Below, one piece after another: positions 12,570-35,687 of a stretch of 64,000 nt of DNA. The first letter of the stretch is position 1; each line of letters begins with the position of its first letter. Position numbers and translations under genes: made by a program. This stretch comes from an uncultured Bacteroidales bacterium (GTDB lineage: Bacteria; Bacteroidota; Bacteroidia; Bacteroidales; P3): NCBI GenBank assembly GCA_900317125.1, contig ONFR01000020.1:345-64344 (forward strand). The letters run 5' to 3'. Below the pieces are notes generated by a model, which saw only the letters and a list, made by a program, of their open reading frames with translations, searched no databases and was not told the DNA's origin.

Positions 12570-13601
12570 ATGATTGACAAAAACACCCGCCAAGTGAACA
12601 TCCTATTTACATCTGCCGGACGCCGGACATACATCATCCATTATTTCCAGCAAGCCCTGAAAGGGAGGGGCAAAGTGTTTGCCTCCAACAGCATCTACAC
12701 CTACACCCTCGGGCAGGCCGACGGCCATACTCTCACCCCCGAGATCTACAACCCCGACTACATCCCCTTCCTCCTGCAATACTGCAAAGCAAACAGCATC
12801 ACCGCCATCATCCCGCTGTTCGACATCGACCTGCCCATACTCGCCAAACACCGCACCCTTTTCGAACAAGAAGGCATCACACTCATCGTATCGGACTATC
12901 CCGTTGCCCAGACATGTAACGACAAGTGGGCCACATACCAATTACTCAAGCAGGCGGGACTGAACCAGCCGCCTACATTCCTCAGCCTGGCCGATGCCAC
13001 AAAAGCCATCGACACGGGCTCCGTCGCATTCCCACTCATCGTCAAACCCCGCTGGGGCATGGGCTCCATCGGCATCTACACCACCCGAAACCGCGAAGAG
13101 CTCAACGTCCTCTATGCCAAATTACGCAACGACATCTGGGATACCGCCCTCCGCTTCGAATCCGCCGCCGACAAAGAGGCCAGCATCATCATCCAACAAC
13201 AGATCAAAGGCCAGGAATACGGCATCGAAATACTCAACGACCTCCAAGGCCACTATGCAGCCACCTTCGCCAAAAAGAAAATAGCCATGCGCTCGGGCGA
13301 GACCGATGTGGCCGAGACCGTGGACCCCACCCCCTTCCTGCCCATTGCTCAGACACTGTCGTCGCATCTCAGGCACCGTGCCATGCTCGACGTCGACTGC
13401 TTTGTCTCCCCCTCGGGCGACATTACGGTACTCGAAATGAATTGTCGCTTCGGCGGTCAATACCCGTTTACCCACAACGCAGGTGTCAACGTCCCCCTGC
13501 AGCTGGTCCGCTGGCTCCAAGGCCTGCCCACCGACCCCGCGCTACTCACCCAACGTTGCGGCGTCCGCAGCTGCAAGGACATCAACCCTGTCATCTTCTA
13601 A
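12570..13601 (+). CDS. ATP-grasp domain ligase
   Basis: 'ILFTSAGRR', 'FPLIVKPRWGMGSIGI', 'IIQQQIKGQEYGIE' and 'VLEMNCRFGG' give the ATP-grasp pattern. Confidence 0.7.
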   Translation: MIDKNTRQVNILFTSAGRRTYIIHYFQQALKGRGKVFASNSIYTYTLGQADGHTLTPEIYNPDYIPFLLQYCKANSITAIIPLFDIDLPILAKHRTLFEQEGITLIVSDYPVAQTCNDKWATYQLLKQAGLNQPPTFLSLADATKAIDTGSVAFPLIVKPRWGMGSIGIYTTRNREELNVLYAKLRNDIWDTALRFESAADKEASIIIQQQIKGQEYGIEILNDLQGHYAATFAKKKIAMRSGETDVAETVDPTPFLPIAQTLSSHLRHRAMLDVDCFVSPSGDITVLEMNCRFGGQYPFTHNAGVNVPLQLVRWLQGLPTDPALLTQRCGVRSCKDINPVIF

Positions 13602-14531: not shown

Positions 14532-16072
14532 CCACCTTCCAGCAAGTCATACTCACCCCCCTCCTCGACAGCATCACCGCCCATGCCGACGGTGAAGCCC
14601 TGCTCATCAACAGCGAGTCATACACCTACCGCCAACTCGGCCAACGCATCAGCGCCATACGCCACGCACTCCAACAGCAACAAATCCACCACCAAATCGT
14701 CGCCCTGCTTCTCGACGACCATATCGACACCTACGCCTCCATCATCGCCCTTTGGTTCGAAGGGAATGCTTATCTCCCCCTTAACCCACGGTGGCCCGAA
14801 CAGCGCAACCTCGACATCATCCACCAAACATCGGCCAAGCTACTGCTCTACACCGACCCGAACGCACCCATCCTGCAACAGTTCTCAACCATCGGAACCT
14901 CCGCCATACCCACCACCACACTACCCACACCGTCCAGTCAACAATCGGCACCTTACCCCACCGACGACAACGACCTGGCTTACATCCTGTTCACCTCCGG
15001 CAGTACAGGCAAACCCAAGGGCGTCTGCATCACACGCGACAACCTCGCCTCCTTCATCCAGTCGTTCTGGCACACCGGCATCAACATCACCTCGTCCGAC
15101 CGATGCCTCCAAGCCTTCGACCTCACCTTCGATGTCAGCATCCAGACCTTCCTCACCGCATTCATTCCAGGAGCCTGTCTCTGCACCATCCCCACCGCAC
15201 AAGTCAAGTACCTTTACGCCGCCATGCTCATCACAGAGCAAGGCATCACCTGCGCAGCCATGGCTCCATCCATGCTCACCTATCTTCGCCCATACTTCAG
15301 CCAACTGGATGCCTCAAGCCTGCGCACCACCATTCTCACTGCCGAAGCATGCCCTGCCTATCTTGCACAAGAATGGTCCAAATGTGCCGTAAACACACAA
15401 ATCTTCGACCTCTATGGACCCACCGAGGCCACAGTCTACAGCACCTGCTTCCACCTGCCCACACCCTACACCGACAACACCCCCAACGGCATACTGCCCA
15501 TCGGCAAACCGCTTCTCAATATCGACGCCATCATCATAGACTCCGACTTAAATCCGCTCCCCGCCAACCACGAAGGCGAACTCTGCCTCGCAGGCCGCCA
15601 AGTCACTCCGGGCTATTGGCAAAATCCCTCTCAAGATGCTACCGCATTCATCACCACACCCGACGGCAAGCGCTACTACCGCACAGGCGACCTATGCACA
15701 CTCCTCCCCGACGGCAACATCCTCTACCACGGACGCATCGACCAACAAGCAAAAATACAGGGATACCGTGTGGAACTCGGCGAGATAGAACACCACGCCG
15801 CCACCTATCTCAAACATCACTCCCGCACCGTTGCAGTCACCTACCAAAGTCCTCAGGGCCTTGACCAGATTGCTCTATTCATCGAGGATGACCCCGATAC
15901 CCACACCTCCAACGACAACGACCTACTCGACCACCTCAAAACCTTGATGCCCCAATACATGATACCCTCGTGCATCATCCATCACTGTCCTTTGCCGCTC
16001 AACAACAATCAGAAAATCGACCGCAACGCTCTGAAGACCATCATCAGCCAACATGCCACAAAGAATGCTTAA
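14528..16072 (+). CDS. Stand-alone amino-acid adenylation enzyme (DltA/NRPS A-domain-like, ANL superfamily)
   Basis: Core motifs 'LAYILFTSGSTGKPKGV', 'LYGPTEATV', 'GELCLAGRQVTPGYW', 'YRTGD', 'GRIDQQAKIQGYRVELGEIE' and 'NQKIDRNAL'. ATGA overlap with the upstream GT2. Confidence 0.8.
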   Translation: MTTFQQVILTPLLDSITAHADGEALLINSESYTYRQLGQRISAIRHALQQQQIHHQIVALLLDDHIDTYASIIALWFEGNAYLPLNPRWPEQRNLDIIHQTSAKLLLYTDPNAPILQQFSTIGTSAIPTTTLPTPSSQQSAPYPTDDNDLAYILFTSGSTGKPKGVCITRDNLASFIQSFWHTGINITSSDRCLQAFDLTFDVSIQTFLTAFIPGACLCTIPTAQVKYLYAAMLITEQGITCAAMAPSMLTYLRPYFSQLDASSLRTTILTAEACPAYLAQEWSKCAVNTQIFDLYGPTEATVYSTCFHLPTPYTDNTPNGILPIGKPLLNIDAIIIDSDLNPLPANHEGELCLAGRQVTPGYWQNPSQDATAFITTPDGKRYYRTGDLCTLLPDGNILYHGRIDQQAKIQGYRVELGEIEHHAATYLKHHSRTVAVTYQSPQGLDQIALFIEDDPDTHTSNDNDLLDHLKTLMPQYMIPSCIIHHCPLPLNNNQKIDRNALKTIISQHATKNA

Positions 16073-16113
16073 AAACATTTCAAAACAATATCACCAATAA
16101 TCATTCATCACAA

Positions 16114-16359
16114 ATGACGCGCACGGAACTCATAGCAACCATCCAACCCCTTGCCAGACAGATCTTCTCCAGCCCCGACCTCGAAATTACCGACCAACTC
16201 GGACCGGCAAACCTCCCCGCCTGGACATCCCTCACCTTCACACAACTGCTCACTGCACTTGAGGATACCCTCAACATTAAATACAAGATGATGGAAATTA
16301 TCAAGATGCAGAATATGGGAGCCATCATCGACATCACGCTCCACCACCTCAACGCATAA
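16114..16359 (+). CDS. Small acyl/peptidyl carrier protein (DltC-like)
   Basis: 81-aa acidic helical protein directly after the adenylase. The candidate phosphopantetheine site lies in 'AWTSLTFTQLL' (Ser within a DSL-like motif). Confidence 0.6.
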   Translation: MTRTELIATIQPLARQIFSSPDLEITDQLGPANLPAWTSLTFTQLLTALEDTLNIKYKMMEIIKMQNMGAIIDITLHHLNA

Positions 16360-16368
16360 TTCCTAGAA

Positions 16369-17436
16369 ATGGAATCCGTCGAGATAAAGACATACTCAGC
16401 AAAAGAACTGCTGCAATGGCTCAACACCGGCCATAGCACCCCCTTTGGCCCTAAAGGGGTCATATCGCCGTCGCGAGCACTGGCCTTTGCCAACAACCCC
16501 TATGTCGACCCCGACGATCCCATTGCCTGCGCTTTGTTCGTGGCAACCTCGTCCGGACAACCCGCACTGGTTGCATACACCGCTGCATTCCCCGACATGG
16601 TGGGCAATCAACGCATGTGGTGGTTTAGCACCCTTTGGTGCCACCCCGAGCACCGGGGGAAAGGGTACCCGCTGGCACTTGTGGGCACACTGGCTGAACA
16701 CTATGGACCCGAAAACTGTCTCGACACCATGGGCGCAGCCGAAACTGTTGAGATATTTCGCTTCCTTGGCCACCAAGTGTCATACCTCCACGAGCACCGT
16801 TTCGGAAGTAAAATACAGCGTGGCGGTCTTCGCGGCCACATCCTCTACCAGCGGGAGCAACTCCGCACATTCTTGCGCAGACATAACGCTCGAGCCCTCC
16901 GTGCGATCAATCATTCGACATATACACTGCAATACATCGACCTGATTGATGACGACACATACAGTCTCATCCAGCGTCAATCGGCCAACGACCTCTTCCC
17001 GCGTACACGCGAAACATTCAATTGGATACTTCAATATCCCCTGAAACACTGCACGCCGCTTCCCCATCGCACCTCTTCACGCGGACTATTCGGCGATAGC
17101 GACCCCCTCTACTGGCTGCGGGGAGTCAAAGTAATGCACGGCGATGAAACCATTGGATTCTATATCATCCGCAACGCCGAGTCGGACCTTTCCGTTAAAT
17201 ACCTCTACTATGCCGAACCCTACCGTGACCAGGTTTTCACCTCCATTGTCGAGCACATACTCCATTTTGGGAACTCCTGTTTCGCCACACGCCATACGGA
17301 ACTGGCAAACTACATAGCTGCAACGAAACTATTCAAAAGCCATAAAATCGCAGACATCTCCCTCTCCTGCCCCAAGGGATTCAGTCTGAACCCATCAGGC
17401 AGCACGCAAGGAGGCGATGGCGACTGTTTTGCCTGA
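16369..17436 (+). CDS. Two-lobed GNAT-like acyl/aminoacyl transferase (hypothetical)
   Basis: 'WWFSTLWCHPEHRGKGYPLALVGTL' resembles the GNAT motif A (R/Q-x-x-G-x-G/A). At 355 aa it is the size of a duplicated GNAT or Fem-like fold. Confidence 0.45.
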   Translation: MESVEIKTYSAKELLQWLNTGHSTPFGPKGVISPSRALAFANNPYVDPDDPIACALFVATSSGQPALVAYTAAFPDMVGNQRMWWFSTLWCHPEHRGKGYPLALVGTLAEHYGPENCLDTMGAAETVEIFRFLGHQVSYLHEHRFGSKIQRGGLRGHILYQREQLRTFLRRHNARALRAINHSTYTLQYIDLIDDDTYSLIQRQSANDLFPRTRETFNWILQYPLKHCTPLPHRTSSRGLFGDSDPLYWLRGVKVMHGDETIGFYIIRNAESDLSVKYLYYAEPYRDQVFTSIVEHILHFGNSCFATRHTELANYIAATKLFKSHKIADISLSCPKGFSLNPSGSTQGGDGDCFA

Positions 17437-17454
17437 CCTGCCATTTCAATCTAC

Positions 17455-18177
17455 ATGCCAATGTCCACTACAAGGTTGCTTAACAAAATAGACCGTCGGC
17501 TCACGCAGCTCACCCTTGCTCCGATCGAAGTATTTGTGTTCCATTGCGTATCGGACACCTTCGACCCCTCGCTCTGTCAGCGGCAGGACTGGACGCCCAC
17601 CAACTATTTCAAACATCAAATACAACAACTCAAAAGTCAGTATACCTTCATTCCCCTCCCCGAGGTATACCATCGGCTGACGCACGACCGATTCCGTCGA
17701 ACCAAGTATGCCGCCCTCACCTGCGACGACGGCAATGCCTCCATCCTCTCCATCCTTCCTTTCCTCTCCTCCGAACAGGTACCCGTAACCCTGTTCATCA
17801 ATCCAAAATATCTCGACGGTATCAGCATCCGTGAAAACTACTGCAGCAATCCACTCTATATTACCCTCGACCAACTGTCTGCTATACAATCGCCCATGGT
17901 GAACATTGCCCTGCACGGCTTCAAGCACGACGATTGCACGCTCATGTCCCGCGCCGATTTCGATGCCTCCGTGTCCAAGTGCGAAGAATTATTAAAACAA
18001 CATCCACGCTATATTAATTATTATGCGTACACATGGGGGAGGTACAACGACACCACACAGTCCGTACTACGCGAACGGAACATCATACCCCTCTTCTGCG
18101 ACGGAGCCTCCAACCGCCGATACAGGGACGGAATCAGCCGCAGGTGTATCGATACCCCCGGCACCGTAAGGCTTTAA
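17455..18177 (+). CDS. Polysaccharide deacetylase (CE4/NodB-like)
   Basis: 'ALTCDDGNASI', 'VPVTLFINP' and 'ALHGFKHDD'. Confidence 0.6.
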   Translation: MPMSTTRLLNKIDRRLTQLTLAPIEVFVFHCVSDTFDPSLCQRQDWTPTNYFKHQIQQLKSQYTFIPLPEVYHRLTHDRFRRTKYAALTCDDGNASILSILPFLSSEQVPVTLFINPKYLDGISIRENYCSNPLYITLDQLSAIQSPMVNIALHGFKHDDCTLMSRADFDASVSKCEELLKQHPRYINYYAYTWGRYNDTTQSVLRERNIIPLFCDGASNRRYRDGISRRCIDTPGTVRL

Positions 18178-21204: not shown

Positions 21205-22602
21205 TTGGTACCTTTCTTCCCAAAACAATTATCCACTAAGGCCATTACGCTTTATCTCGTGTCGCTGGCCATAGTGAGCATTATCTTTGTACGCCTGATG
21301 ATGAAGTTTGATTTCATCATCATCGGCATCATGTGGGTGTTGGTCTTTTTCCTGCTCTCGGCGAGGTTCACACGCAAGTGGGTGGATTTAGATGAGAAGC
21401 ATTATTGCCGTAAGGTGTTCTGGACCGCGCTGTGGCTGCGACTGGCATGGGTGGTGTTCTCGTTCTTCTTCTTCACCTTCAAGACGGGTGTACCCTTTGA
21501 ATTCGGGTCGAGCGATGCGTTGGGTTATCACAACGAGGCGCTCTGGTTCCAGGAAATAGGATGGAAGGCGGCACGCGACTACCTGTCACGACGCTCGCTT
21601 GCCGATGCCGGCTATGTCACCTATCTGGGATTGCTCTATTCTGTAACGGGTGGCAGTATTATTGTGACGCGTATCATCAAGGCGTTGCTAAGCAGCTGGA
21701 TGTGCCTGCTCATTTACAAGCTTGCCAAGCGCAACATGGGCGAAGAGGTGGGCAGGATGGCCGGTATTTTCTGCTGCCTGATGCCCAATCTGATTATGTA
21801 CTGTGGTTTGCACCTCAAGGAGACAGAAATGATTTTCCTCTGCGTGGCCACCCTAGAGCGGGCCGACAGTCTGCTACGCAGCAGTAAGTTTAATTTCTGG
21901 AAACTGCTTGTCACGGTGTTGTTGGCGGTGAGCTTGTTCTTCTTCCGCACGGTCTTGGGCGCCACTACGATATTTGCCATCTTGACGGGGCTGGTGTTCT
22001 CGTCGAGTGCTGTGATGAGCAGATGGAATAAGGTGGTGCTGATCTCGTGGGCAATAATAGGGCTGGGGGTGATGGCTGGCGGCAGCATTGCATCGGAGGC
22101 ATTGAGTGTTTGGGAGGGGCGCAACGAGAACCAGGCGGCCAAGCGCGACTACCAAGTGTACAAGGGCATTAAATGGGCCAAATACGCAACGGGGTCGGTG
22201 ATGGCTCCCATCATGTTCGTCATGCCGTTCCCCACGATGGTAGACGTAGACCAGCAGTACAACCAGCAGCTGATGAACGGAGGAAACTATGTCCGAAACT
22301 TTTTGGGTATCTTTGTGTTGATAGCGTTGTTCAGTTCGATTTTCGTGCTCAAGAACTGGCGCGACCTGTCGATGCTTTGGGCCTTCCCAGTATCGTACCT
22401 TGGGGTTGTGTGTATGAGCGGCTTTTCCAATTCGGAGCGTTTCCTGCTACCGGGTCTTCCGTTCCTGCTCATGCTGTCGGCATATGGTGTGAGTCTGATG
22501 AATGCCCGTAATTTCAGATGGGTGAAGGTGTGGTATTGGGTGGTTCCAGTGATGGTGATAGGTTGGGCTGTGTTTAAACTGGGTTCGAGAGGACTGTTGT
22601 GA
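21205..22602 (+). CDS. Polytopic membrane protein, either a GT-C-like glycosyltransferase or an O-antigen-polymerase-like protein
   Basis: About 11-12 hydrophobic segments, with 'GSSDALGYHNEALWF' in the first loop. The TTG start at 21205 is uncertain; the first ATG is at 21298, but hydrophobic sequence precedes it. Confidence 0.55.
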   Translation: MVPFFPKQLSTKAITLYLVSLAIVSIIFVRLMMKFDFIIIGIMWVLVFFLLSARFTRKWVDLDEKHYCRKVFWTALWLRLAWVVFSFFFFTFKTGVPFEFGSSDALGYHNEALWFQEIGWKAARDYLSRRSLADAGYVTYLGLLYSVTGGSIIVTRIIKALLSSWMCLLIYKLAKRNMGEEVGRMAGIFCCLMPNLIMYCGLHLKETEMIFLCVATLERADSLLRSSKFNFWKLLVTVLLAVSLFFFRTVLGATTIFAILTGLVFSSSAVMSRWNKVVLISWAIIGLGVMAGGSIASEALSVWEGRNENQAAKRDYQVYKGIKWAKYATGSVMAPIMFVMPFPTMVDVDQQYNQQLMNGGNYVRNFLGIFVLIALFSSIFVLKNWRDLSMLWAFPVSYLGVVCMSGFSNSERFLLPGLPFLLMLSAYGVSLMNARNFRWVKVWYWVVPVMVIGWAVFKLGSRGLL

Positions 22603-22733
22603 GAATTGAGAATTGAGAATTGAGAAAGTGGCTCCACGTATCACACGAATTACACGTATAAAATAATACTTGTGATACGCGAGATACGTGGAGATAATTG
22701 AGAGTTGAAGATTGAGAATTGAGAATTGAGATT
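22601..22733. repeat. Repeat element R1, copy A. (GAGAATT)n heptamer arrays flank a ~62-nt imperfect hairpin.
   Basis: Its core, 'GAGAATTGAGAAAGTGGCTCCACGTATCACACGAATTACACGTATAAAA..ATACTTGTGATACGCGAGATACGTGGAGA', is near-identical to 28410-28485. Outer 11-bp stem CTCCACGTATC/GATACGTGGAG at 22632-22693. Confidence 0.85.
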
Positions 22734-22742
22734 TAATCATTC

Positions 22743-23825
22743 ATGAAAATAGCTTTTTATTTCGGGAGCCTGAACCGCGGGGGCTCAGAGACATTGGTGT
22801 GCGATGTGCTGCGGCACTGGCGCGACCTCCCCTTTGAGGCCGTTTGCATTTATCGTAACGAGGGCAACATGTCCGACGATTTCCACGCCACAGGTGCCCC
22901 CATGGTACACATCCCCAGGAGAGGCAACTGGCTGACATATCTGTTGGATATGTGCAAGGTGCTGCGTAACGAGGGGGTGGACATCCTCCATGCACAAACG
23001 TCGCTGAACGCCATGACTGCCGTTCTCTGCTCCTGGCTAACGGGGGTGAAGGCGGTCACTACGTTTCACGGGTTCGGATTCGAGAAGGCTCCACGATGGA
23101 AGAAACGGATGGTTGGCGGCGGCAACAAAAAACTGCTGTTTGTAAGCGAATATATGCGCAACCGCTATCTAAAAGCAGGAGTGGGCACACAGGAGGACAA
23201 ATGCGCAGTGGTCTACAACGGTATAGACATGTCGAAGTTCGGACCCGTGCGAGCTCCCAAGCCAGCCGGAGAGAGGGTGGAGATGTGTATGGTGGGCAGT
23301 TTCGGACTGGTGCGCGACCAATACTTCGTCTGCCGATTCCTGAAACGTGTCCACGAAGCAGGGATTCCATTCCATTTCACCTTCATAGGTGGTGCACGCA
23401 AGGGAGAGGAAAAGGCGTTGGAGGCATGTCGGACTTTTTGCCACGACAACGGACTGGACGACTGCGTCACCTTCGCCGGGGTACGGCACGATGTGCCGGA
23501 GTTGCTGAAAGAGATGGATCTTTTCGTTTACGCCTCGCGATGCGACACCTTTGGCATAGCAGTGGCGGAAGCCGTGGCGACAGGGATGCCGGTGATGGTG
23601 AACGACTGGGATGTGATGCGCGAAGTGACCGCAGAAGGCAAGTGGGCATGGCTCTACCCGTCGGGCAATGTGGACGCACTCTTCGACCTATACACACAGT
23701 TTATCCAACACCCCGACACGTTTGTCGACAAGGCCATAGAGCATGCACACGCTGTAAGGGAAGCCTACAGCATTGAGAAACATGTCGAAACACTCAACAG
23801 TATTTATCGGTCCATTCTGAAGTGA
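22743..23825 (+). CDS. Glycosyltransferase family 4 (GT-B)
   Basis: 'MKIAFYFGSLNRGGSETLV' and 'FGIAVAEAVATGMPVMVND' (E-x7-E region). Confidence 0.8.
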   Translation: MKIAFYFGSLNRGGSETLVCDVLRHWRDLPFEAVCIYRNEGNMSDDFHATGAPMVHIPRRGNWLTYLLDMCKVLRNEGVDILHAQTSLNAMTAVLCSWLTGVKAVTTFHGFGFEKAPRWKKRMVGGGNKKLLFVSEYMRNRYLKAGVGTQEDKCAVVYNGIDMSKFGPVRAPKPAGERVEMCMVGSFGLVRDQYFVCRFLKRVHEAGIPFHFTFIGGARKGEEKALEACRTFCHDNGLDDCVTFAGVRHDVPELLKEMDLFVYASRCDTFGIAVAEAVATGMPVMVNDWDVMREVTAEGKWAWLYPSGNVDALFDLYTQFIQHPDTFVDKAIEHAHAVREAYSIEKHVETLNSIYRSILK

Positions 23826-23897: not shown

Positions 23898-24887
23898 ATG
23901 AAGAATATGAACAATACACTGAAAACCGTAGGACTGCCCATCTCGCACAAAGAGAATGAGAAGAGAAGAGCGTTGGTGCCTGCCCACATAGCCCGGATGG
24001 CACATCCCGGCCAGATTTTCATCGAGAAGGGATACGGTGATGTGCTCGGATTCTCCGACGAGGAGTATACAAAACTGGGAGTGCATGCTGTATCACGTGA
24101 GGAGACTCTGGACAAGGATATCGTTGCCGACCCCAAGATAGGCGATGCCGAATATCTGGACTCGCTTCATGACCAGACAGTCTTCGGCTGGCTGCATGCG
24201 GTTCAGAACCGGGACATCACAGACAAAATCATACAAGGCCACCTCTCAGCCTATGCGTGGGAAGACATGTATGAATACGGCCGCCATTGTTTCTGGCGCA
24301 ACAACGAGATTGCTGGCGAGGCTGCCGTAATCCATGCCTATATGTGCCATGGGGTGTTTCCTTACAACACCAAAGCGGCAGTGCTTGGACGAGGCAACAT
24401 CGCCCGTGGCGCCGTTAAGACCCTTAACTATATGGGGGCCGAGGTGGTGCAGTACGACCGCAAGACGGAGGGTCTGTTCCGCAAAGAGCTTGGCGACTAC
24501 GACGTGATAGTGAACGCCATCCTTTGGGACACGTCGCGCAAGGACCATATCCTCTACCGCGATGACCTCAAGCGGATGCGGAAGGGGGCTATGATTATCG
24601 ATGTGTCGTGCGACAGGAATGGCGGCATAGAAACCAGTGTTCCTACCACTATCGACAACCCCATCTACGTGACAGAAGGCGTGACGCACTATGTGGTTGA
24701 CCACACGCCTTCCCTTTTCTGGAAAACAGCCACCGAAACCTTAAGTGAAGTATTTGTCCGATACATCGATTTCCTGATAGAGGATATCCCTCTGAAAAAC
24801 GACGTGTTGAAAAATTGCCATAGTTTCGAACAGGGCAGGATATTGGATAAGCGCATTGCTGAATACCAGGGCAGGGCTCTCGTATAG
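23898..24887 (+). CDS. AlaDH/PNT-fold dehydrogenase resembling N5-(1-carboxyethyl)ornithine synthase (opine-type synthase)
   Basis: 'AAVLGRGNIARGAVKTL' (NAD(P) loop), 'YDVIVNAILW', 'MIIDVSCDRNGGIETS' and 'DNPIYVTEGVTHYVVDHTPSL'. The order and spacing match my recollection of Lactococcus CEOS. Confidence 0.55.
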   Translation: MKNMNNTLKTVGLPISHKENEKRRALVPAHIARMAHPGQIFIEKGYGDVLGFSDEEYTKLGVHAVSREETLDKDIVADPKIGDAEYLDSLHDQTVFGWLHAVQNRDITDKIIQGHLSAYAWEDMYEYGRHCFWRNNEIAGEAAVIHAYMCHGVFPYNTKAAVLGRGNIARGAVKTLNYMGAEVVQYDRKTEGLFRKELGDYDVIVNAILWDTSRKDHILYRDDLKRMRKGAMIIDVSCDRNGGIETSVPTTIDNPIYVTEGVTHYVVDHTPSLFWKTATETLSEVFVRYIDFLIEDIPLKNDVLKNCHSFEQGRILDKRIAEYQGRALV

Positions 24888-24959
24888 AGAATAACAGTAA
24901 AAGGGGAGCAATGGCCTTTCCTTTTTATGATAGAATAATAATCAAAAAGCATCTTGACA

Positions 24960-25973
24960 ATGAAAATGACCATTACCGGCGGAGCTGGATTCATCGGGTC
25001 CAACCTGTGCGACTATTTCGTGACGGAAGGCATGGAGGTGACCTGTCTCGACAACCTCTCCACTGGATTCAAACATAATATCGAACACCTTTTGTGCCGC
25101 GACAATTTCAGATTTTTAGAAGGTGATATACGCGACCTCGACACCTGCCGCGAAGTGGTGGCCGGAAGCGATGTGGTTCTGCACGAAGCGGCCTTGGGCA
25201 GTGTGCCACGCAGCATCAACGATCCCATCAACACCAACGCCAATAATATCGACGGCTTTCTGAACATGCTCGTTGCATCGCGCGATGCAGGTGTCAAACG
25301 GTTTGTCTATGCCGCCAGCTCCTCAACCTATGGCGACAGTGCAGTGCTCCCCAAGCGTGAACATCTCATAGGCCGCCCGCTCTCACCCTACGCCATCACA
25401 AAGTTCGTAAACGAGTTATATGCCAACGTCTTTTCCTCACTCTATGGGATAGAAACTATCGGGTTGCGTTATTTCAATGTTTTCGGCCGGAGGCAAGACC
25501 CCAATGGAGCCTATGCGGCAGTGATTCCGCTGTGGGTGCGCGCCCTCATTGATCATCGCCAACCTTTTATCAATGGCGACGGTAGTTACTCGCGCGATTT
25601 CACCTATGTCGACAATGTGGTGCAAGCCAACCTTTTGGCAGCAACAATACCCACCGAGCTGTTTCATCAACGTATCGAAGCCTACAACTCCTCGCTGCCC
25701 GAAGGCAGTCCACGCGACACCGTTTTCAATGTAGCATACGGCGGCAACACTACACTCAACCAACTCTTCAACTGCCTGCGCGACAACCTGGCACATTTCG
25801 ACCCCGAGATTGCAAACATCGAAGCGCTGCACCGCGAGAACCGCCCTGGCGACATCCCCCACTCACAAGCCTCTATCGACAAAGCGCGACAGGTGCTCGG
25901 TTACGACCCGAAATTCGATGCGCTGAAAGGGTTTGAACAAGCATGCGAATGGTATTGGAACAATCTAAAGTGA
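24960..25973 (+). CDS. NAD-dependent sugar-nucleotide 4-epimerase (WbpP/TviC-like extended SDR)
   Basis: 'ITGGAGFIGSNLCDYF', 'LDNLSTGFKHNIEHL', 'YAITKFVNELY' and 'GDGSYSRDFTYVDNVVQANL'. Confidence 0.75.
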   Translation: MKMTITGGAGFIGSNLCDYFVTEGMEVTCLDNLSTGFKHNIEHLLCRDNFRFLEGDIRDLDTCREVVAGSDVVLHEAALGSVPRSINDPINTNANNIDGFLNMLVASRDAGVKRFVYAASSSTYGDSAVLPKREHLIGRPLSPYAITKFVNELYANVFSSLYGIETIGLRYFNVFGRRQDPNGAYAAVIPLWVRALIDHRQPFINGDGSYSRDFTYVDNVVQANLLAATIPTELFHQRIEAYNSSLPEGSPRDTVFNVAYGGNTTLNQLFNCLRDNLAHFDPEIANIEALHRENRPGDIPHSQASIDKARQVLGYDPKFDALKGFEQACEWYWNNLK

Positions 25974-26068: not shown

Positions 26069-26998
26069 ATGAAAGTAATCTTTGTGGCAAGCGGCAACAA
26101 GCATGTAGGCACCGTTAGCGCCTTTGTCAAATCGCAATACCTTTCGCTTGAGCGGGAGGGGTTGGAGATGATGCTCTTCCCGGTGCGAGGGAAAGGATGG
26201 AAAGCCTATGCCAAAGCCACCTGGCAGCTGCAGCGACTTATACGTAAGGAACGCCCGGCTATTGTACATGCACACTACTCCATGTGCGGTCTTGTTGCCT
26301 CTGCCGGCACGCTTTTTTCAAGTACCAAGGTGGTGGTGTCGATACTGGGGAGTTTCCCTCGCCAAACGTTCAAACGGCGCTGGGTAAGATTCTTCATACG
26401 CCATGTCTGGGACGCCACCATCGTCAAATCACAACGCACCTCCAACCAACTGGGCATACCGCTTCCCGTCATTCCCAACGGAGTAAATCTTGAACAATTC
26501 ACCCTCATCGAACAACAACAAGCCCGCGAAATCTGCGGCTTCGACAATGACCACAAATACATCATTTGGTGCTCCCACCCCACCCGCACCGAGAAACACT
26601 TCAACTGGGCCAAGGAGGCTGTGCAGCGGCTGGACGACGACAAGGCCGTGCTGTATCCCGTTTACGACAAGAGCCACGACGAGGTGGTCAAGTATATGTG
26701 CGCTGCAGACTTGCTCCTCCTCACCTCAGTGATGGAAGGTTCGCCCAATGTAATCAAGGAGGCCATGGCTTGCAACTGTCCCATCGTCAGCACAGACGTG
26801 GGCGATGTGCAATGGATTACCGAAGGGGTCGACGGCACATACGTGGTACCCATTGGCGACATTCCGGCGTTGACCGAGGGCATTCGGAAGGCCCTTGCCT
26901 GGGGAAAACGGACCAATGGCCGCGACAGAATCCTGCAATATGGACTTACAACCACTGAAATTGCAAAGAAAATCATCTCAGTCTATGACTCCCTATAA
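26069..26998 (+). CDS. Glycosyltransferase family 4 (GT-B)
   Basis: 'MKVIFVASGNK' and 'LLLLTSVMEGSPNVIKEAMACNCPIVSTDVGD'. Confidence 0.75.
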   Translation: MKVIFVASGNKHVGTVSAFVKSQYLSLEREGLEMMLFPVRGKGWKAYAKATWQLQRLIRKERPAIVHAHYSMCGLVASAGTLFSSTKVVVSILGSFPRQTFKRRWVRFFIRHVWDATIVKSQRTSNQLGIPLPVIPNGVNLEQFTLIEQQQAREICGFDNDHKYIIWCSHPTRTEKHFNWAKEAVQRLDDDKAVLYPVYDKSHDEVVKYMCAADLLLLTSVMEGSPNVIKEAMACNCPIVSTDVGDVQWITEGVDGTYVVPIGDIPALTEGIRKALAWGKRTNGRDRILQYGLTTTEIAKKIISVYDSL

Positions 26999-28394
26999 TA
27001 TCATCGACCGCTACCTCTTCCTCCCCCTGGGAGATGTGGTATATGGTAGCCGTGTGGCTGCCAGCCTGAAAGAGCTGCAACACTCCGCTACGTTCTCTGC
27101 AGAGGAGTTGCGGAGGCTTCAGGACAGCAAGCTGCAAAAGCTGGTGAAGCACAGCTACGACACCGTTCCCTACTACCACCGCCTATTCGACCGACTCAAA
27201 CTGAAACCTGAAGATATACATAGCCGTGACGACCTCCGCCTGTTGCCTGTCCTAACAAAACAGACTATCCGCGACAACTATGCCGACCTATTCAGTACAG
27301 CCGTCAGTCCCAAACGATGGCGCAAATCGTCAACAGGCGGCAGCACCGGAACGCCTCTCCAATTCTGCACCGACAACGTTGAATGGAGCAGCTGGAAAGC
27401 CTCCACCTTACGTGCGTGGGAGTGGTACGGACTGCACCTGGGCGACAAAATATTCTCGCTGGGCGGCAGTTCCATCAACAAACGCAAAGCCGTCACGTCG
27501 TTCAAAGGCCTTTACGACCTGGTAATCATGCGTAACCACAAATACAGCAGTTCCGATGTCACCGATGAATGCATGCAGCGCAACTACCAAGCCTTGATGA
27601 AACTGCGTCCTACGGCGATACGGGGTTACGGCTCCTCGCTCTACATATTGGCACGCTACATTCAAACCCACAACCTCCCCCTTTGTCCCATCAAGGCTGT
27701 GCTGACTACGGGCGAAGTGCTCATGGCCGAATACCGACGCACGCTTGAGGAGGTATTTAAGGCTCCCGTATACGATGCCTACGGTGCCAGCGATGGCGGC
27801 ATTCTCTCGCACGAATGTCCAAGTCACTCCGGTCTCCACATCACCGAAGAGTCGTGCATCATCGAAATCACCGATCTCCAGGGCAACCCCCTCGCCGACG
27901 GCATTGTTGGCCATGTATGTACCACCGATCTCGACAACTTCGTCTTCCCCTTCCTGCGCTACCATGTGGGCGACATGGCATACCTCAAAACCGAACCCTG
28001 CGCCTGCGGCCGACCTTCACGTCTTATTGGCGAAGTGATGGGCCGCGCTGGCAAACTGATGTACAATAAACAAGGGGTTCCCATCTCTCCCACCATCCTC
28101 CCTATGATGTTCTACCCCAACCTCGACTACCACAACAGGGAATACCAAAAAAGATACTACAAAATCGACAGATTCCAAATAAGACAGGACAAACAGGGCG
28201 ATATCTTGATACTCCTTAAACTGAAAGACCCCTCCGAATCTCACGAACAATTCAACTACATCATCGACAATTACCGCAACCACTTCGTCGGCTCCGAGGT
28301 CACCTTGCGTTTTGTCGACGAGATTCCCACCCTACCCTCAGGCAAGGAAGACTACTGCGTTTCCGAATACGAATACAAGAGAATTGAGAATTGA
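26985..28394 (+). CDS. CapK / phenylacetate-CoA ligase (PaaK, F390-synthetase)-like adenylate-forming enzyme
   Basis: 'RKSSTGGSTGTPLQF' (P-loop-like AMP motif), 'IRGYGSSLY', 'YGASDGG' and 'YHVGDMA'. The start is set at 'MTPYNIIDRYLF'. The last codons and the stop lie inside repeat R1b. Confidence 0.7.
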   Translation: MTPYNIIDRYLFLPLGDVVYGSRVAASLKELQHSATFSAEELRRLQDSKLQKLVKHSYDTVPYYHRLFDRLKLKPEDIHSRDDLRLLPVLTKQTIRDNYADLFSTAVSPKRWRKSSTGGSTGTPLQFCTDNVEWSSWKASTLRAWEWYGLHLGDKIFSLGGSSINKRKAVTSFKGLYDLVIMRNHKYSSSDVTDECMQRNYQALMKLRPTAIRGYGSSLYILARYIQTHNLPLCPIKAVLTTGEVLMAEYRRTLEEVFKAPVYDAYGASDGGILSHECPSHSGLHITEESCIIEITDLQGNPLADGIVGHVCTTDLDNFVFPFLRYHVGDMAYLKTEPCACGRPSRLIGEVMGRAGKLMYNKQGVPISPTILPMMFYPNLDYHNREYQKRYYKIDRFQIRQDKQGDILILLKLKDPSESHEQFNYIIDNYRNHFVGSEVTLRFVDEIPTLPSGKEDYCVSEYEYKRIEN

Positions 28395-28510
28395 GAGTTG
28401 AGAGTTGAGAATTGAGAAAGTGGCTCCACGTATCACACGAATTACACGTATAAAAAATACTTGTGATACGCGAGATACGTGGAGAGAATTGAGAATTGAG
28501 AATTGAGAGA
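28378..28510. repeat. Repeat element R1, copy B, in direct orientation relative to copy A
   Basis: Same heptamer arrays and same hairpin (CTCCACGTATC/GATACGTGGAG at 28424-28484). It differs from copy A by a 1-nt indel/substitution in the loop. Confidence 0.85.
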
Positions 28511-28640
28511 TGTTGATAGGTTAAATCGTTGATAGGTTTATATGTTGATACGTTTATACGACTCGCAACAGATCAACAGATAAACAGATAAACACATTAA
28601 CACATTAACACATTAACACATTCACGAATTAATTATTAAT
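28511..28640. repeat. Repeat element R2b, an 8-bp-periodic palindromic array
   Basis: GTTGATAG GTTAAATC GTTGATAG GTTTATAT GTTGATAC GTTTATAC ... ACAGATCA ACAGATAA ACAGATAA ACACATTA x3 ACACATTC. The two halves are imperfect reverse complements of each other. Confidence 0.8.
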
Positions 28641-31137: not shown

Positions 31138-31920
31138 ATGAAAACACAAAGAACTCTGCTTCTAGCAGCCCTTGTTGCGACGCTCGCCTTCACCTCTTGC
31201 GTCACCCCCAGTCAAGTCAACTACCTCCAAGACATGCGCCACGGTAGCCAGATAGAACTGGAAAACAAATTCCAGGCAATTATATGCCCCTACGACGAAC
31301 TTGACATCTATGTTTTTGGACCCGTCGACGATGAGAAAGTCACAAAACCTTTCAACATCGGAAGCAACACCATCAACGGCTACACCACCAACCGCCGCGG
31401 TGCCTACCTCGTTGATGTCAACGGCGACATCCAGTTCCCTGTCCTTGGACAAATCCACGTCGCAGGCCTCACCCGACTCCAGCTTCAGGACACCATCCAG
31501 AAACGCCTTGCCGAACAGCACCTCCTTACCCAGCCTGTCGTCATGGTACGTTTCGCCAATTTCAAAATATTCTTCCTCGGTGCCGAAGGTGGTAAATCCA
31601 TCACCATCACCAACGAGCGCTGCACCTTCCTCGAAGCACTTGCCCTCTGCGGCGACCTCAGTGTATACACTAACCGAAACAAGATTGCCGTCATGCGTGA
31701 AATCGACGGCAAGATGGTGATGCGTTATCTTGACCCGCGTTCCTCCTCGGTATTCCAAGACCCCTTCTTCATGTTACAGCAGAACGACTTCATCATCACA
31801 CAGAACTACAACACCTCCACCACTCGCCAGGAAGCCCGTAACTTCGTAACCATGTGGGTCTCCACAGCCATGTCCACCATCACCCTCGTACTCACAGTAA
31901 TCAACCTCCTCAACAAATAA
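31138..31920 (+). CDS. wza: Outer-membrane polysaccharide export protein (Wza/OPX family lipoprotein)
   Basis: Lipobox 'LAFTSC'. Poly_export-like 'YLVDVNGDIQFPVLGQIHVAGLTRLQLQDTIQKRL' and an SLBB-like segment. Confidence 0.8.
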   Translation: MKTQRTLLLAALVATLAFTSCVTPSQVNYLQDMRHGSQIELENKFQAIICPYDELDIYVFGPVDDEKVTKPFNIGSNTINGYTTNRRGAYLVDVNGDIQFPVLGQIHVAGLTRLQLQDTIQKRLAEQHLLTQPVVMVRFANFKIFFLGAEGGKSITITNERCTFLEALALCGDLSVYTNRNKIAVMREIDGKMVMRYLDPRSSSVFQDPFFMLQQNDFIITQNYNTSTTRQEARNFVTMWVSTAMSTITLVLTVINLLNK

Positions 31921-32056
31921 CACAAACAAGTGACAGAGAGCCATCGGTAGAATTGAAAGCGAGCCTGAGCATATTACCATTCATACGCAATAACTCCTCA
32001 CCCGTACCGCCATTTTCTACCGCCAAATCTTATTAAAATAAAAAAACACCAACAAT

Positions 32057-34552
32057 ATGGACGACAACAGCAGCAAAACACAGCGGACGCAGACCGACCT
32101 GTCATTCCTCGACGACAAGCAGTCCATCTCATTCCACATCAAGGACATCATATTCTTGATACTCCGCAATATACATTGGCTCATCATCTTCGCGGCATTA
32201 GGAGGTGTGGTTGCCAACCTCTACGCACGCCGTCAGGAGAAATCCTATGAAAGCTCCGCCAAAATTCTGATCCGTGCCGGAAACGACATCAACGTCAGCG
32301 ACAACGACACTCGCGAAGCTACCATTCGCACTGCCCTGGGACTGCGTTCGTTCTTCTCCAGCACCATAAACAACGAGATTATGATTCTCACCTCCAAATC
32401 CACAATCCAGAGAGCGGTAGAGGATCTCCATCTCAATGTAAAATATTCGACCAAGACCCGCCTTATTCACCGAGACAAGGATCTCTACAACACTTCACCC
32501 GTCGAAATCGAACTGCTCGATGACAACGAAGGTTTCAAACTGCCCGGCCGTCTTACCATCAAAATCCTCGATAAAAGTCACGTACTCCTCTGCACTCCGG
32601 GTCACCACGCCTTATATATCCCTGTCGACAAGACTGTCATCACCCCGCTCGGCAAACTCGTCATCCACAAAACATGGGCTTTCGAAGACGACTACATCGG
32701 ACAGGAGATTTTTGTTGAGAACCTGGATCCCGTGGCTGTGGCCGAATACTACCGCGCCCGTCTTGTCGTGCGCCGCAATGACGACCGCAACACCATCCTC
32801 AACCTCACCATGCGCGACCCCTCGCCGGAACGCTGCGCCGACTTCATCAATGCTGTCATCCGCGTCTACAACGACGGTGCCGTTAACGATAAGAAACGCA
32901 TCATCTCCGACACCTACAACTACATCAACGAACGTATCAACATCATTAGTGGCGACCTCGATGCACAAGAGTCAGCCATGGCCAACTACCGCAGCAGCAA
33001 CGATGTAGTCACCTCCGCCACCGTGGGCGAAAGATACATCTCCGCCAGCATCTCCTCCAACAACGAAATCAACCGTATGCAGTCGGAACTCGAGATGGTA
33101 CGTACCCTTCTCAACGCCATCCGCTCCAACGACGGCAGCCGTGTTATCCCCATCGGAACCGTCACCAACTCCATCATCGTCTCCTACCTCACCAACTTCA
33201 ACCAGCACGCACAAGAAGTGGCCCGCTATCTTGAGAGCGGTATCACCAGCAACCCCATCGCCACACGTGCCATCGAAAACCAACGCCAGCTCCAGCAGGA
33301 TCTCGCCACTATGACCGAAGGCTACATCTCCTCCCTCGAACAACGCATCATGAACGAACGCAACGTTGCCAACACCGCCTCTGCCAAAATGCGCTCCGTC
33401 CCCCAGAAGCAAATCTATCTCGAAGGTATGGAACGCAACCAGAAGATCAAGGAGCAACTTTATGTCTCCCTCCTCACTCGCCGTGAAGAGCTCATGATCA
33501 GCCAGCCCTCTCTCGAAGGCAACGCCAAAATCATCGATGCTGCACAGGTCATCAAACGTCCGGTCTCACCCAACACTCCCCACATCACCTTCATCGGTAT
33601 CATCATCGGACTCCTTCTGCCAGTAGTATACTACATCCTGCGCCGCCTCTTCGACACCCAGGTCAAGAGCTATGCCGACATTGAGTCCTCTATCACCGTA
33701 CCCTTCCTCTGCGAAATCCCGGCCCTTGACGACACCGAAAAACGCGACATCGTCATCACCGACAAAGAACATGAGGGCATTGCCGAATCCTTCCGTCACC
33801 TGCGTTCCAAAATCGACTTTCTCAGCAGCCAGCCTGGACAAGCCAAGACGCTCTTGTTCACATCTCTCATGCCTGGATCCGGCAAAACATTTACCACCAG
33901 TAATCTGGCTGCATGCATCGGCCTTACCGATAAAAAGATACTTATCATCGATATCGACTTGCGCAAAGCCTCCCTCACCCGCCGTTTCTATAGTCGCCAC
34001 AAACCCGGTTTAGTCAACTACCTTACCGGCAAAGTCGACGACATCACATCTCTCATCCAGCACGATGTCATGGCTCCTGGTGTTGATTCTCTCTTCTCCG
34101 GCCCCATCCCGCCAAATCCTGCCGAACTGCTCAGCAATCCCCGCTTTGACCAAGGCATATCCACCCTGCGTTCCAAATACGACTACATCATCATCGACGG
34201 CACGCCGGCTGGCATGGTTGTAGACACCGACATCATCAAACACGTGGCCGACCACACCTGCTTCATGATTCGTGCCCGCAAATTCGACAAACGCTTGCTC
34301 CTCGACGTTGAGCGTCTCTACAAAGAGGAGGCTTTCCCCAATATGTGCATCATTCTCAACGATGTCAAATACGAGAAGCAGCCCATCTATGGCCGCCGCT
34401 ATGGTTACGGCTATGGCTACGGTTATGGCTATGGCTACGGCTACGGTTATGGCTATGGTTACGGCTATGGCAATCCCAACGAAAGCCTGAGCGACGAGGA
34501 ACCTCAGGAGAAGAAAGGACCTCTCTCCTGGCTCAAATTCAAGAAAAAATAA
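32057..34552 (+). CDS. wzc: Polysaccharide co-polymerase / BY-tyrosine kinase (Wzc-like, PCP-2a)
   Basis: N-terminal Wzz/GumC-like domain between two TM segments, a long coiled periplasmic region, kinase Walker A 'SLMPGSGKTFTTSNLA', 'IIIDGTPAG' and a Tyr-rich tail. Confidence 0.85.
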   Translation: MDDNSSKTQRTQTDLSFLDDKQSISFHIKDIIFLILRNIHWLIIFAALGGVVANLYARRQEKSYESSAKILIRAGNDINVSDNDTREATIRTALGLRSFFSSTINNEIMILTSKSTIQRAVEDLHLNVKYSTKTRLIHRDKDLYNTSPVEIELLDDNEGFKLPGRLTIKILDKSHVLLCTPGHHALYIPVDKTVITPLGKLVIHKTWAFEDDYIGQEIFVENLDPVAVAEYYRARLVVRRNDDRNTILNLTMRDPSPERCADFINAVIRVYNDGAVNDKKRIISDTYNYINERINIISGDLDAQESAMANYRSSNDVVTSATVGERYISASISSNNEINRMQSELEMVRTLLNAIRSNDGSRVIPIGTVTNSIIVSYLTNFNQHAQEVARYLESGITSNPIATRAIENQRQLQQDLATMTEGYISSLEQRIMNERNVANTASAKMRSVPQKQIYLEGMERNQKIKEQLYVSLLTRREELMISQPSLEGNAKIIDAAQVIKRPVSPNTPHITFIGIIIGLLLPVVYYILRRLFDTQVKSYADIESSITVPFLCEIPALDDTEKRDIVITDKEHEGIAESFRHLRSKIDFLSSQPGQAKTLLFTSLMPGSGKTFTTSNLAACIGLTDKKILIIDIDLRKASLTRRFYSRHKPGLVNYLTGKVDDITSLIQHDVMAPGVDSLFSGPIPPNPAELLSNPRFDQGISTLRSKYDYIIIDGTPAGMVVDTDIIKHVADHTCFMIRARKFDKRLLLDVERLYKEEAFPNMCIILNDVKYEKQPIYGRRYGYGYGYGYGYGYGYGYGYGYGYGNPNESLSDEEPQEKKGPLSWLKFKKK
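34400..34471 (+). repeat. In-frame (TAY-GGY)12 hexanucleotide repeat encoding the (YG)12 C-terminal tyrosine cluster of Wzc
   Basis: Twelve consecutive Tyr-Gly codon pairs, with synonymous variation at the wobble positions. Confidence 0.9.
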
Positions 34553-34565: not shown

Positions 34566-35687
34566 GTGGAACAAGGCAACAACATCACTGTCACCACTCC
34601 GCTCCTGCCCGACCTCGACGAGTTTAACAACTTGCTGAAAGAGATCTGGGCGAGCAAGTGGATTACCAACAACGGACATTACCACCAACTGTTGGAAGAG
34701 GCATTGTGCCAATACCTTAAAGTTCCATACATCAGTCTCTTCACCAACGGCACACTGCCATTGCTCACTGCCCTCCAGGCGCTCCACATCCAAGGCGAAG
34801 TCATCACCACCCCCTACAGCTTTGTAGCCACCACCCACAGCATCTGGTGGAATGGGCTCACTCCCGTCTTCGTCGATATCGACCCTTCCAACTGCGGCAT
34901 CGACCCCGACAGGATTGAGGCAGCCATCACTCCTCGCACCTCCGCCATCATGCCCGTCCATTGCTATGGGAAACCCTGCGATGTTCAACGCATCCAACAG
35001 ATAGCGGACCGCCATGGATTGAAAGTGATATACGATGCCGCACATGCTTTCGGTGTGGAGACCGACGGCCAGTCCATCCTCCAATGGGGCGACATGTCCA
35101 CGCTCAGCTTCCACGCCACCAAAGTGTTCAACACCGTAGAGGGGGGTGCGCTGATCTGCCACGATGCTGCCACCAAAAAGCATATCGACTACCTGAAGAA
35201 TTTCGGGTTCGAAAACGAGACCGAAGTAGTAGCCCCTGGCATCAACGGCAAAATGGACGAAATACGTAGTGCCTATGGTCTCCTCAACCTCGCCAAAGTC
35301 GATGCGGCCATCGAACACCGCCACCAAGTAGCCATCCGCTACCGCGAAGCGCTGCGAAACGTTCCCGGCATACGCTTTTTCGACGATATGCCAGGAGTAA
35401 GACACAACTACAGCTACTTCCCCATCTTCGTTAACGCCGACGAGTATGGAATGTCGCGCGACAAACTCTACGAAACGCTCCGTCAACACGGCATCCTTGG
35501 TCGCCGCTACTTCTATCCGCTCATCAGCACTTTCGGCGACTACCGCCACTTACCCAGTGCCAACCCCGACAATCTGCCCGTAGCCACACGCATCGCCGAC
35601 GAAGTGATCTGCCTGCCCATGCACCACGAATTGACCGACCAAGAGCAACAACGGATCCTCGACATCATCATCTCTATAGTCCATTAG
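34566..35687 (+). CDS. DegT/DnrJ/EryC1-family PLP-dependent sugar aminotransferase
   Basis: 'TTPLLPDLDEF', 'ITTPYSFVATT' and 'LSFHATKVFNTVEGGALI' (PLP lysine). Apparent GTG start. Confidence 0.8.
   Translation: MEQGNNITVTTPLLPDLDEFNNLLKEIWASKWITNNGHYHQLLEEALCQYLKVPYISLFTNGTLPLLTALQALHIQGEVITTPYSFVATTHSIWWNGLTPVFVDIDPSNCGIDPDRIEAAITPRTSAIMPVHCYGKPCDVQRIQQIADRHGLKVIYDAAHAFGVETDGQSILQWGDMSTLSFHATKVFNTVEGGALICHDAATKKHIDYLKNFGFENETEVVAPGINGKMDEIRSAYGLLNLAKVDAAIEHRHQVAIRYREALRNVPGIRFFDDMPGVRHNYSYFPIFVNADEYGMSRDKLYETLRQHGILGRRYFYPLISTFGDYRHLPSANPDNLPVATRIADEVICLPMHHELTDQEQQRILDIIISIVH

Follow-up and report, generated by a model that had tools for sequence, protein, structure and literature searches.

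The locus described here raises the question of why a gene that resembles an opine synthase should lie in the middle of a surface-polysaccharide cluster. The gene is found in a stretch of 64,000 nucleotides (the window) from an uncultured rumen Bacteroidales bacterium (contig ONFR01000020.1), where Wzm/Wzt, glycosyltransferase, Wza/Wzc and UpxY-like genes surround it. A first-pass annotation, made from the sequence alone, described its product as a 329-amino acid (aa) protein of the alanine dehydrogenase / pyridine nucleotide transhydrogenase (AlaDH/PNT) fold, encoded between a family 4 glycosyltransferase (GT4) gene and a sugar epimerase gene. This description is borne out by the open reading frame, by Pfam and by the matches of the flanking genes. 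The annotation also likened the protein to N5-(1-carboxyethyl)-L-ornithine synthase (CEOS, EC 1.5.1.24) of Lactococcus lactis, which couples pyruvate to L-ornithine or L-lysine with NADPH, and proposed that the glycan carries an opine-type amino-acid substituent. From the analysis that follows, the window protein is predicted to be a CEOS-like enzyme of the opine-synthase type, being neither an alanine dehydrogenase nor an ortholog of the Lactococcus CEOS. It is considered moderately probable that the enzyme synthesizes an N-(1-carboxyethyl)amino acid that becomes amide-linked to the glycan.

Family placement of the encoded protein

The reading frame at 23898–24887 (+) runs for 329 codons without interruption, and the opposite strand is stop-rich. 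Translation may in fact begin at the second ATG (23907): one database cluster is 326 aa in length and most homologs begin near residue 8. The gene is present in one copy in the genome to which the window belongs (2.96 Mb, 47 contigs, 98% complete). All of the motifs quoted in the first-pass annotation are found in the order given: VLGRGNIARGA at residues 162–172, YDVIVNAI at 201–208, IIDVSCDRNGGIETS at 233–247, DNPIYV at 253–258 and HYVVDHTPSL at 264–273. The likeness in motif order to the Lactococcus CEOS is also reproduced, with the RefSeq-named gene presenting ILGSGNVAQGA, YDIIINGI, IIDVAADAGNTIEGT and DAPIYENDGKYYYVVPNTPSL in matching order.

Pfam recognizes both parts of the fold, with AlaDh_PNT_N (PF05222) at E = 1e-14 (55.1 bits, gathering cut-off 30.4) and the NAD-binding AlaDh_PNT_C (PF01262) at E = 5e-23 (82.1 bits, cut-off 23). 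There is no CEOS model in NCBIfam, where the only models matched are those of AlaDH and PntA, both far under their cut-offs. The protein fails the AlaDH equivalog TIGR00518 (99.2 bits, cut-off 391.85) as well as the PntA model (52.6 bits, cut-off 383) and, at 329 aa, has no membrane part. An AlphaFold2 model (pLDDT = 93.6) superimposes on the Mycobacterium tuberculosis AlaDH structures 2VHX and 2VHW with a template modeling (TM) score of 0.86–0.87, the closest being the pyruvate/NAD ternary complex 2VHX, and on the transhydrogenase dI structures with a TM score of 0.75–0.83. The PDB holds no CEOS structure, and sequence and fold searches against it return only AlaDH and transhydrogenase dI, with saccharopine dehydrogenase absent from the top 50 matches. 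Since these searches cannot separate CEOS from AlaDH, phylogenetic trees were used instead.

Both NCBI and JGI name the close homologs N(5)-(carboxyethyl)ornithine synthase. As this name is based on similarity, the placement was put to the test. The Lactococcus reference is a RefSeq-named CEOS gene identified by a tblastn search of plasmids (WP_252172599.1, L062:3995–4927, 310 aa), which serves as a proxy for the biochemically characterized CEOS of L. lactis K1. The window protein is 30.7% identical to this reference over 293 residues (136 bits). The best AlaDH reaches 28% identity and 126 bits, in a range of 22–28% for the AlaDHs in general. When the Lactococcus CEOS-type gene is the query, AlaDHs reach only 57–77 bits. 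A quick tree of 120 rows and a careful maximum likelihood tree of 58 rows (LG+C20, PntA as the outgroup) agree with each other. The window protein and the Lactococcus CEOS-type gene share a clade whose stem is 1.15 substitutions per site long, supported by a Shimodaira-Hasegawa-like approximate likelihood ratio test (SH-aLRT) value of 100 in the first tree and by ultrafast bootstrap/SH-aLRT values of 100/100 in the second. All AlaDH-like sequences and PntA fall outside this clade. The closest relatives of the window protein are thus neither plain AlaDHs nor transhydrogenases, and the CEOS-family assignment made earlier holds in the form of a CEOS-like one.

The CEOS-like clade divides into four subclades. 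The window protein belongs to the first, together with members from Bacteroidales, Clostridia, Carnobacteriaceae and Coprobacillus. The second comprises the Lactococcus/Enterococcus CEOS-type proteins (support 100/99), the third contains proteins of 360–390 aa from Proteus, an Escherichia coli plasmid and many Actinobacteria, and the fourth is a group without a name. A loop of approximately 12 residues present in AlaDH is deleted in all four. The Lactococcus clade pairs with the Proteus clade (91/85) and not with the subclade of the window protein. Given this separation and an identity of 30.7%, the window protein is best described as CEOS-like and not as an ortholog of the Lactococcus enzyme.

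Residues R23, K80, H100 and D239 of the window protein align with positions that are invariant in four AlaDHs and 42 CEOS-like sequences. Their counterparts in M. tuberculosis AlaDH are presumably R15, K75, H96 and D270, the pyruvate-binding and catalytic residues. At the position that contacts the dinucleotide ribose, the window protein has Asp187, as does the ribose-binding position of NAD-dependent AlaDHs, whereas the Lactococcus protein has Tyr and the Proteus and E. coli proteins have Ser. In contrast to the Tyr found in the Lactococcus type, Asp187 hints at the use of NADH by the window enzyme, at a position that varies among the members of the clade (D, A, N).

Neighborhoods of related genes and a proposed role in glycan decoration

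Genes were called and clustered around relatives of the CEOS-like gene in 56 genome loci. The most frequent immediate neighbor is a 300-aa TupA-like ATP-grasp (PF14305, E = 7e-63), which lies no more than two genes away in 15 loci from Bacteroidales and Clostridia. Also recurring as neighbors are "sugar-transfer associated" (ATPgrasp_ST) and RimK-like ATP-grasps, CapK-like ligases, UDP-sugar 6-dehydrogenases, TviC-like epimerases and PGA_cap proteins. A carboxylate-amine ligase is encoded within five genes in 29 of the 34 relatives outside the Carnobacteriaceae, and uronic-acid genes are present within the same distance in 14 of the 34. Counted per whole locus, 19 have only an ATP-grasp, 9 only a CapK-like ligase, 1 has both and 24 have neither, so that an ATP-grasp is present in 20 related loci. 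The ligase-free loci are mostly from Carnobacteriaceae, where the gene lies among transport and regulatory genes and where the orthologs probably act on free amino acids like the Lactococcus enzyme. The Carnobacteriaceae neighborhoods were judged by eye and not by hidden Markov model (HMM) scans; in loci L038–L053 and L060 (Carnobacterium, Marinilactibacillus, Desemzia) the neighbors are a sugar ABC-binding protein, TetR, a phosphotransferase system (PTS) EIIBC component, GNATs and an aldo-keto reductase.

One Paludibacteraceae locus (L056) allows a direct comparison of gene order. There, the order is membrane protein, TupA-like, CEOS-like, x, GT4, TviC-like, GT4, with no CapK; in the window it is membrane protein, GT4, CEOS-like, TviC-like, GT4, CapK-like. 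As L056 is without CapK and the window genome is without a TupA-like gene, the two predicted ligases may be read as taking each other's place in what is otherwise a homologous module.

N-(1-Carboxyethyl)lysine and alanopine have been known chemically for decades as components of Proteus and Providencia O-antigens. Their occurrence on these O-antigens, as stated in the first-pass annotation, is confirmed in a review that documents N-epsilon-(1-carboxyethyl)-L-lysine amide-linked to galacturonic acid (GalA) and alanopine on Qui4N (PMC10609480). A genome search with an alignment of the subclade that includes the E. coli plasmid recovered Proteus myxofaciens ATCC 19692 (L072). Its contig NZ_LXEN01000085.1 (3835–5905) encodes cpxP, cpxR and cpxA, directly followed by a 362-aa CEOS-like protein. 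The last gene before the end of the contig encodes a TupA-like ATP-grasp of 309 aa (PF14305, E = 1e-43). Since Proteus O-antigen clusters are located between cpxA and secB (Yu et al. 2017, PMC5560731), the pair next to cpxA stands at the start of the P. myxofaciens O60 O-antigen locus. According to supplementary Tables S1 and S4 of the same paper, O60 is assigned to the ATCC strain of P. myxofaciens and has the repeat ->4)-D-GlcpA6(S-Cet-L-Lys)-(b1->6)-D-GalpNAc-(a1->6)-D-GlcpNAc-(b1->3)-D-GlcpNAc-(b1->, where Cet denotes carboxyethyl. Table S4 further lists GalA6(R-Cet-L-Lys) for O13 and R-Cet-EtnP, a carboxyethylated ethanolamine phosphate, for O14. In that study, in which 60 Proteus O-antigen clusters were sequenced, no gene assignment was found for the Cet-Lys substituent, and the CEOS-like and TupA-like genes appear to be unassigned (PMC5560731).

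A similar arrangement is present on the E. coli IncFIB/IncY plasmid p2017-01-4CC_1 from human feces (NZ_AP027746.1, L063, 1–17062), which contains an IS91-flanked capsule-type cluster. The cluster encodes a WecA-like protein, an ATP-grasp-like protein beside a CEOS-like protein (371 aa), a flippase, glycosyltransferases, an EpsG-type polymerase, an epimerase, a nucleotide-sugar dehydrogenase and Wza/Wzb/Wzc. Literature searches on CEOS in glycans, carboxyethyl-lysine clusters, alanopine and CapK with taurine returned structures and no gene assignments; most carbohydrate journals are outside the coverage of these searches and an earlier assignment is possible.

In the mechanism proposed here, the window protein would serve as a CEOS-like, NAD(P)H-dependent opine synthase in glycan decoration. 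Pyruvate would be condensed with a primary amine, most likely the side chain of lysine or ornithine, and reduction of the resulting imine would yield the N-(1-carboxyethyl) substituent. Then, or beforehand, a carboxylate-amine ligase would form the amide between the amino acid and the polysaccharide, most likely at the C6 carboxylate of a uronic acid that would be supplied by the adjacent TviC-like epimerase and delivered through a GT4. The ligase in the window would be the CapK-like adenylating enzyme downstream in the module or, alternatively, the ATP-grasp upstream, with a TupA-like or other ATP-grasp filling this role in most related loci. The expected product would be a uronamide of a carboxyethyl-amino acid, resembling the GlcA6/GalA6(Cet-L-Lys) of Proteus O60/O13 and Providencia O14. 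The proposal draws on the fold, the clade, the active-site positions, the gene neighborhoods and the coincidence in one Proteus strain; from these, the activity, the amine, the acceptor, the linkage and the order of steps are inferred. The opine-type substituent suggested in the first-pass annotation gains support from the frequency of ligase neighbors (29/34) and uronic-acid genes (14/34) and from the pairing in P. myxofaciens O60.

A number of points weigh against this proposal. The window protein is only 31% identical to the Lactococcus-type protein and approximately 31–34% identical to the product of the Proteus gene, and both of these belong to other subclades. The Proteus link is a coincidence, or correlation, in a single strain. 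The role given to the CapK-like ligase rests only on the way CapK and ATP-grasp alternate from locus to locus. Activation of small acids, the usual reaction of PaaK-type enzymes, would fit equally well with a reverse amide, in which the carboxyl of the opine is joined to an amino sugar. No TupA-like ATP-grasp (PF14305) is present in the 98%-complete genome, and the glycan locus is without a UDP-sugar 6-dehydrogenase; of the uronic-acid precursor genes, the TviC-like epimerase gene adjoins the CEOS-like gene and those for three UDP-sugar dehydrogenases are located in other parts of the genome. The Carnobacteriaceae orthologs (52–55% identity) occur in non-glycan neighborhoods, and the neighbors described above are likewise missing for most of the Proteus-type subclade (74 of 80 loci). 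The CEOS-like family is therefore not intrinsically linked to glycans.

The reverse amide forms part of an alternative that is judged rather unlikely, in which a different amine is carboxyethylated. This amine may be ethanolamine phosphate or an amino sugar that the DegT aminotransferase would provide; otherwise, alanopine may be made and its carboxyl adenylated and transferred to an amino sugar by the CapK-like enzyme, as in Providencia alcalifaciens O35. With Gmd and a DegT aminotransferase both encoded in the locus, a 4-amino-6-deoxy sugar is plausible, and small carboxylic acids are the typical substrates of PaaK/CapK-type enzymes. The products themselves have been documented as alanopine N-linked to Qui4N (Providencia O35, PMC10609480) and R-Cet-EtnP (Proteus O14, PMC5560731, Table S4). 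Across loci, however, the recurring partners are uronate-forming enzymes and TupA-type ligases, with DegT-like matches being rare and weak, and the homologous module in L056 has a TupA-like ligase, a fold that acts on the carboxylate of glucuronic acid (GlcA). This alternative differs from the uronamide proposal in the acceptor only.

The sole characterized member of the family, studied by Thompson and Donkersloot, reportedly acts on free amino acids, and the window enzyme may likewise be a cytoplasmic opine synthase that converts free ornithine or lysine to a soluble product, with its position in a glycan locus being incidental. The Carnobacteriaceae orthologs and most of the Actinobacteria members, which lie outside glycan loci, are consistent with such a role. 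It is considered improbable for the window gene, which is co-oriented and tightly packed within a long glycan operon, belongs to a module conserved with the same neighbors in several species, usually has a ligase close by in its non-Carnobacteriaceae relatives, and has the patchy distribution that is typical of variable surface-glycan genes. It is quite improbable that the enzyme is an amino-acid dehydrogenase that feeds an ordinary amino acid, such as L-alanine from pyruvate and ammonia, to the ligases of the locus (ATP-grasp, A-domain, CapK-like). While the top solved structures are alanine dehydrogenases, the four AlaDH active-site positions are retained and Asp187 occupies the position of the AlaDH ribose-binding Asp, the score of 99 bits is far from the AlaDH equivalog cut-off of 392 bits, the branch to the AlaDHs is long (1.15) and fully supported (100/100), and the AlaDH loop is absent. 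A dedicated supply gene would also be hard to justify as alanine is abundant in cells. Taken together, the statistics of gene context, the phylogeny and the HMM scores count against both a free metabolite and a supply of alanine.

The reading favored by this analysis is the recruitment of a CEOS-like opine synthase, together with a ligase, for polysaccharide decoration. A wider view is put forward more tentatively and is on balance doubtful. A CEOS-like enzyme and a carboxylate-amine ligase may constitute a widespread, as yet unassigned module for "glycan opine" decoration in Bacteroidales and Clostridia of the gut and rumen, as well as in capsule and O-antigen clusters of Proteus, Providencia and E. 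coli. In the window variant, a CapK/PaaK-type adenylating enzyme would have replaced the ATP-grasp, and the opine synthase may act on an amino acid that has been joined to the sugar beforehand, a class of substrate not known for this family.

The combination of a CEOS-like gene and an amidoligase gene beside uronic-acid genes offers a concrete and testable gene assignment for a long-known structural oddity. If true, many uncultured anaerobes of the rumen and gut would be predicted to make zwitterionic or acidic polysaccharides decorated with opines. Charged amino-acid decorations influence serotype, recognition by phages and antibodies, and host immune responses to commensal capsules. A function is also suggested for the CapK-like ligases that are widely annotated, yet uncharacterized, in Bacteroidales capsule loci.

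Organization and distribution of the glycan locus

The CEOS-like gene lies mid-operon in a glycan locus of 29 kb (6460–35687), in which every gene is on the + strand. The features of the locus are presented in Table 1.

Table 1. Features of the glycan locus in the window, in order of position
Feature	Position	Strand	Remarks
Start of locus: UpxY/NusG-like; initiating sugar-phosphate transferase; Wzm; Gmd; Fcl; Wzt with C-terminal carbohydrate-binding domain	from 6460	+	
Next in order: PylC-N/CPS-like ATP-grasp; GT2; DltA-like adenylation enzyme; 81-aa carrier protein; weakly GNAT-like protein; NodB-type deacetylase		+	
PylC-N/CPS-like ATP-grasp, possible alternative amide ligase	12570..13601	+	10 kb upstream; PylC-like_N, ATP-grasp_4/3; NF009404 322.8 bits, cut-off 316
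Next in order: unknown gene; two GT2s; 465-aa membrane protein		+	
Upstream repeat copy, ~130 nt, intergenic	22598..22741	.	(GAGAATT)n arrays around a hairpin-like core; families D1-D3
Next in order: GT4; CEOS-like; TviC-like epimerase; GT4; CapK/PaaK-like ligase		+	
GT4 glycosyltransferase, first gene of module	22743..23825	+	co-occurs with CEOS-like gene in L023, L056
CEOS-like AlaDH/PNT-fold reductive-amination enzyme (predicted)	23898..24887	+	329 aa; Pfam, tree, AlphaFold2 model
TviC-like UDP-(N-acetyl)hexuronate 4-epimerase	24954..25973	+	Epimerase, GDP_Man_Dehyd; TviC NCBIfam model E = 2e-105, under equivalog cut-off
GT4 glycosyltransferase, second of module	26069..26998	+	co-occurs in L023, L027, L056
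CapK/PaaK-like adenylate-forming ligase, candidate amide-forming partner	26985..28394	+	start approximate; longest open reading frame from 26895
Downstream repeat copy	28383..28518	.	64-nt and 57-nt pieces 97% and 91% identical between copies
End of locus: hexapeptide acetyltransferase; DUF354; unknown gene; Wza; Wzc; DegT aminotransferase	to 35687	+	
DegT-family sugar aminotransferase	34566..35687	+	DegT_DnrJ_EryC1, E = 1e-100

The best model for the epimerase, TviC, represents the UDP-GlcNAcA 4-epimerase of the Vi antigen. The CapK-like protein matches the PaaK, F390 synthetase and DVU1553-family models with E = 1e-36 to 1e-24, all under cut-off, and CapK_C is matched weakly by an ortholog. 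The two direct repeats of approximately 130 nt enclose exactly the GT4, CEOS-like, TviC-like, GT4 and CapK-like genes, an arrangement that suggests either a cassette or common sites of regulation or processing. Base composition provides no signal of horizontal transfer, which was ruled out on this measure as the module has a GC content of 52.7% compared to 52.8% for the window.

Elsewhere in the locus, the DltA-like adenylation enzyme, the 81-aa carrier (approximately 16115–16359), the weakly GNAT-like protein of 355 aa and the NodB-type deacetylase (14528–18177) make up a second and separate aminoacyl/acyl decoration module, which is kept in syntenic metagenome-assembled genomes (MAGs). Wzm (8252–9121) and Wzt with its Wzt_C carbohydrate-binding domain (11306–12547) form an export pair of the ABC-transporter type, with Wza and Wzc-like genes at 31138–34552; no Wzx or Wzy was recognized in the locus. 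The 465-aa membrane protein (21205–22602) has only a faint GT22/Alg9-like match.

A few MAG species of rumen Bacteroidales show synteny over the entire locus, with 74–92% protein identity. The CEOS-like gene is nevertheless patchy in its distribution. Of 100 other genomes sampled from the family only one carries it, and none of 13 from the genus does, by which a conserved Bacteroidales housekeeping gene is ruled out. The single match among the 100 (G015:C199:2993–3946) is from another genus, is 64% identical and contains an in-frame TAA, and so may represent either a pseudogene or a mistake in the assembly. With regard to the remark in the first-pass annotation that such a substituent would be unusual for a gut Bacteroidales, the scarcity within the family agrees, but metagenomes from rumen and gut commonly contain the gene (3286 database matches).

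Comparison with known systems

The M. tuberculosis AlaDH Rv2780 (2VHX) provides the closest solved fold (TM score 0.86) and has in common with the window protein the Arg, Lys, His and Asp positions and, by prediction, the chemistry of pyruvate and NAD(P)H. The AlaDHs differ in sequence (22–28% identity), in clade and in a loop that is absent from the window protein, for which the expected amine would be an amino acid and not ammonia.

The CEOS-type protein of Lactococcus is closer in kind. It shares with the window protein the two-domain AlaDH/PNT fold, the order of motifs, the deletion relative to AlaDH and the 100/100 clade. In contrast, it has an insertion of approximately 10 residues after the GW.H motif, is without the C-terminal helices and ...FQ.R tail of the window protein, and has Tyr in place of Asp187. 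The Lactococcus gene lies among stress and metal genes whereas the window gene lies among glycan genes.

For the partner step, a precedent is provided by the HS:2 capsule of Campylobacter jejuni, where the C-terminal TupA-like ATP-grasp domain of Cj1438 has been shown experimentally to form an ATP-dependent amide on the C6 carboxylate of GlcA (PMC11800379). The amine in that case is serinol or ethanolamine (phosphate) and there is no opine synthase partner; the window, for its part, is without a TupA-like gene.

The O60 locus of P. myxofaciens is the system that most resembles the proposed one. Its CEOS-like protein is approximately 34% identical to that of the window and belongs to the 360–390-aa subclade, with an insertion of approximately 40 residues after the dinucleotide-binding strand. 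The window locus differs in having a CapK-like ligase and no TupA-like one, and in export by Wzm/Wzt and Wza/Wzc in place of Wzx/Wzy. The TupA-like neighbor of many Bacteroidales and Clostridia genes in the subclade of the window protein is nevertheless 36% identical to the TupA-like protein of P. myxofaciens. Both loci place an enzyme of the CEOS superclade within a surface-glycan cluster alongside a carboxylate-amine ligase and uronic-acid chemistry.

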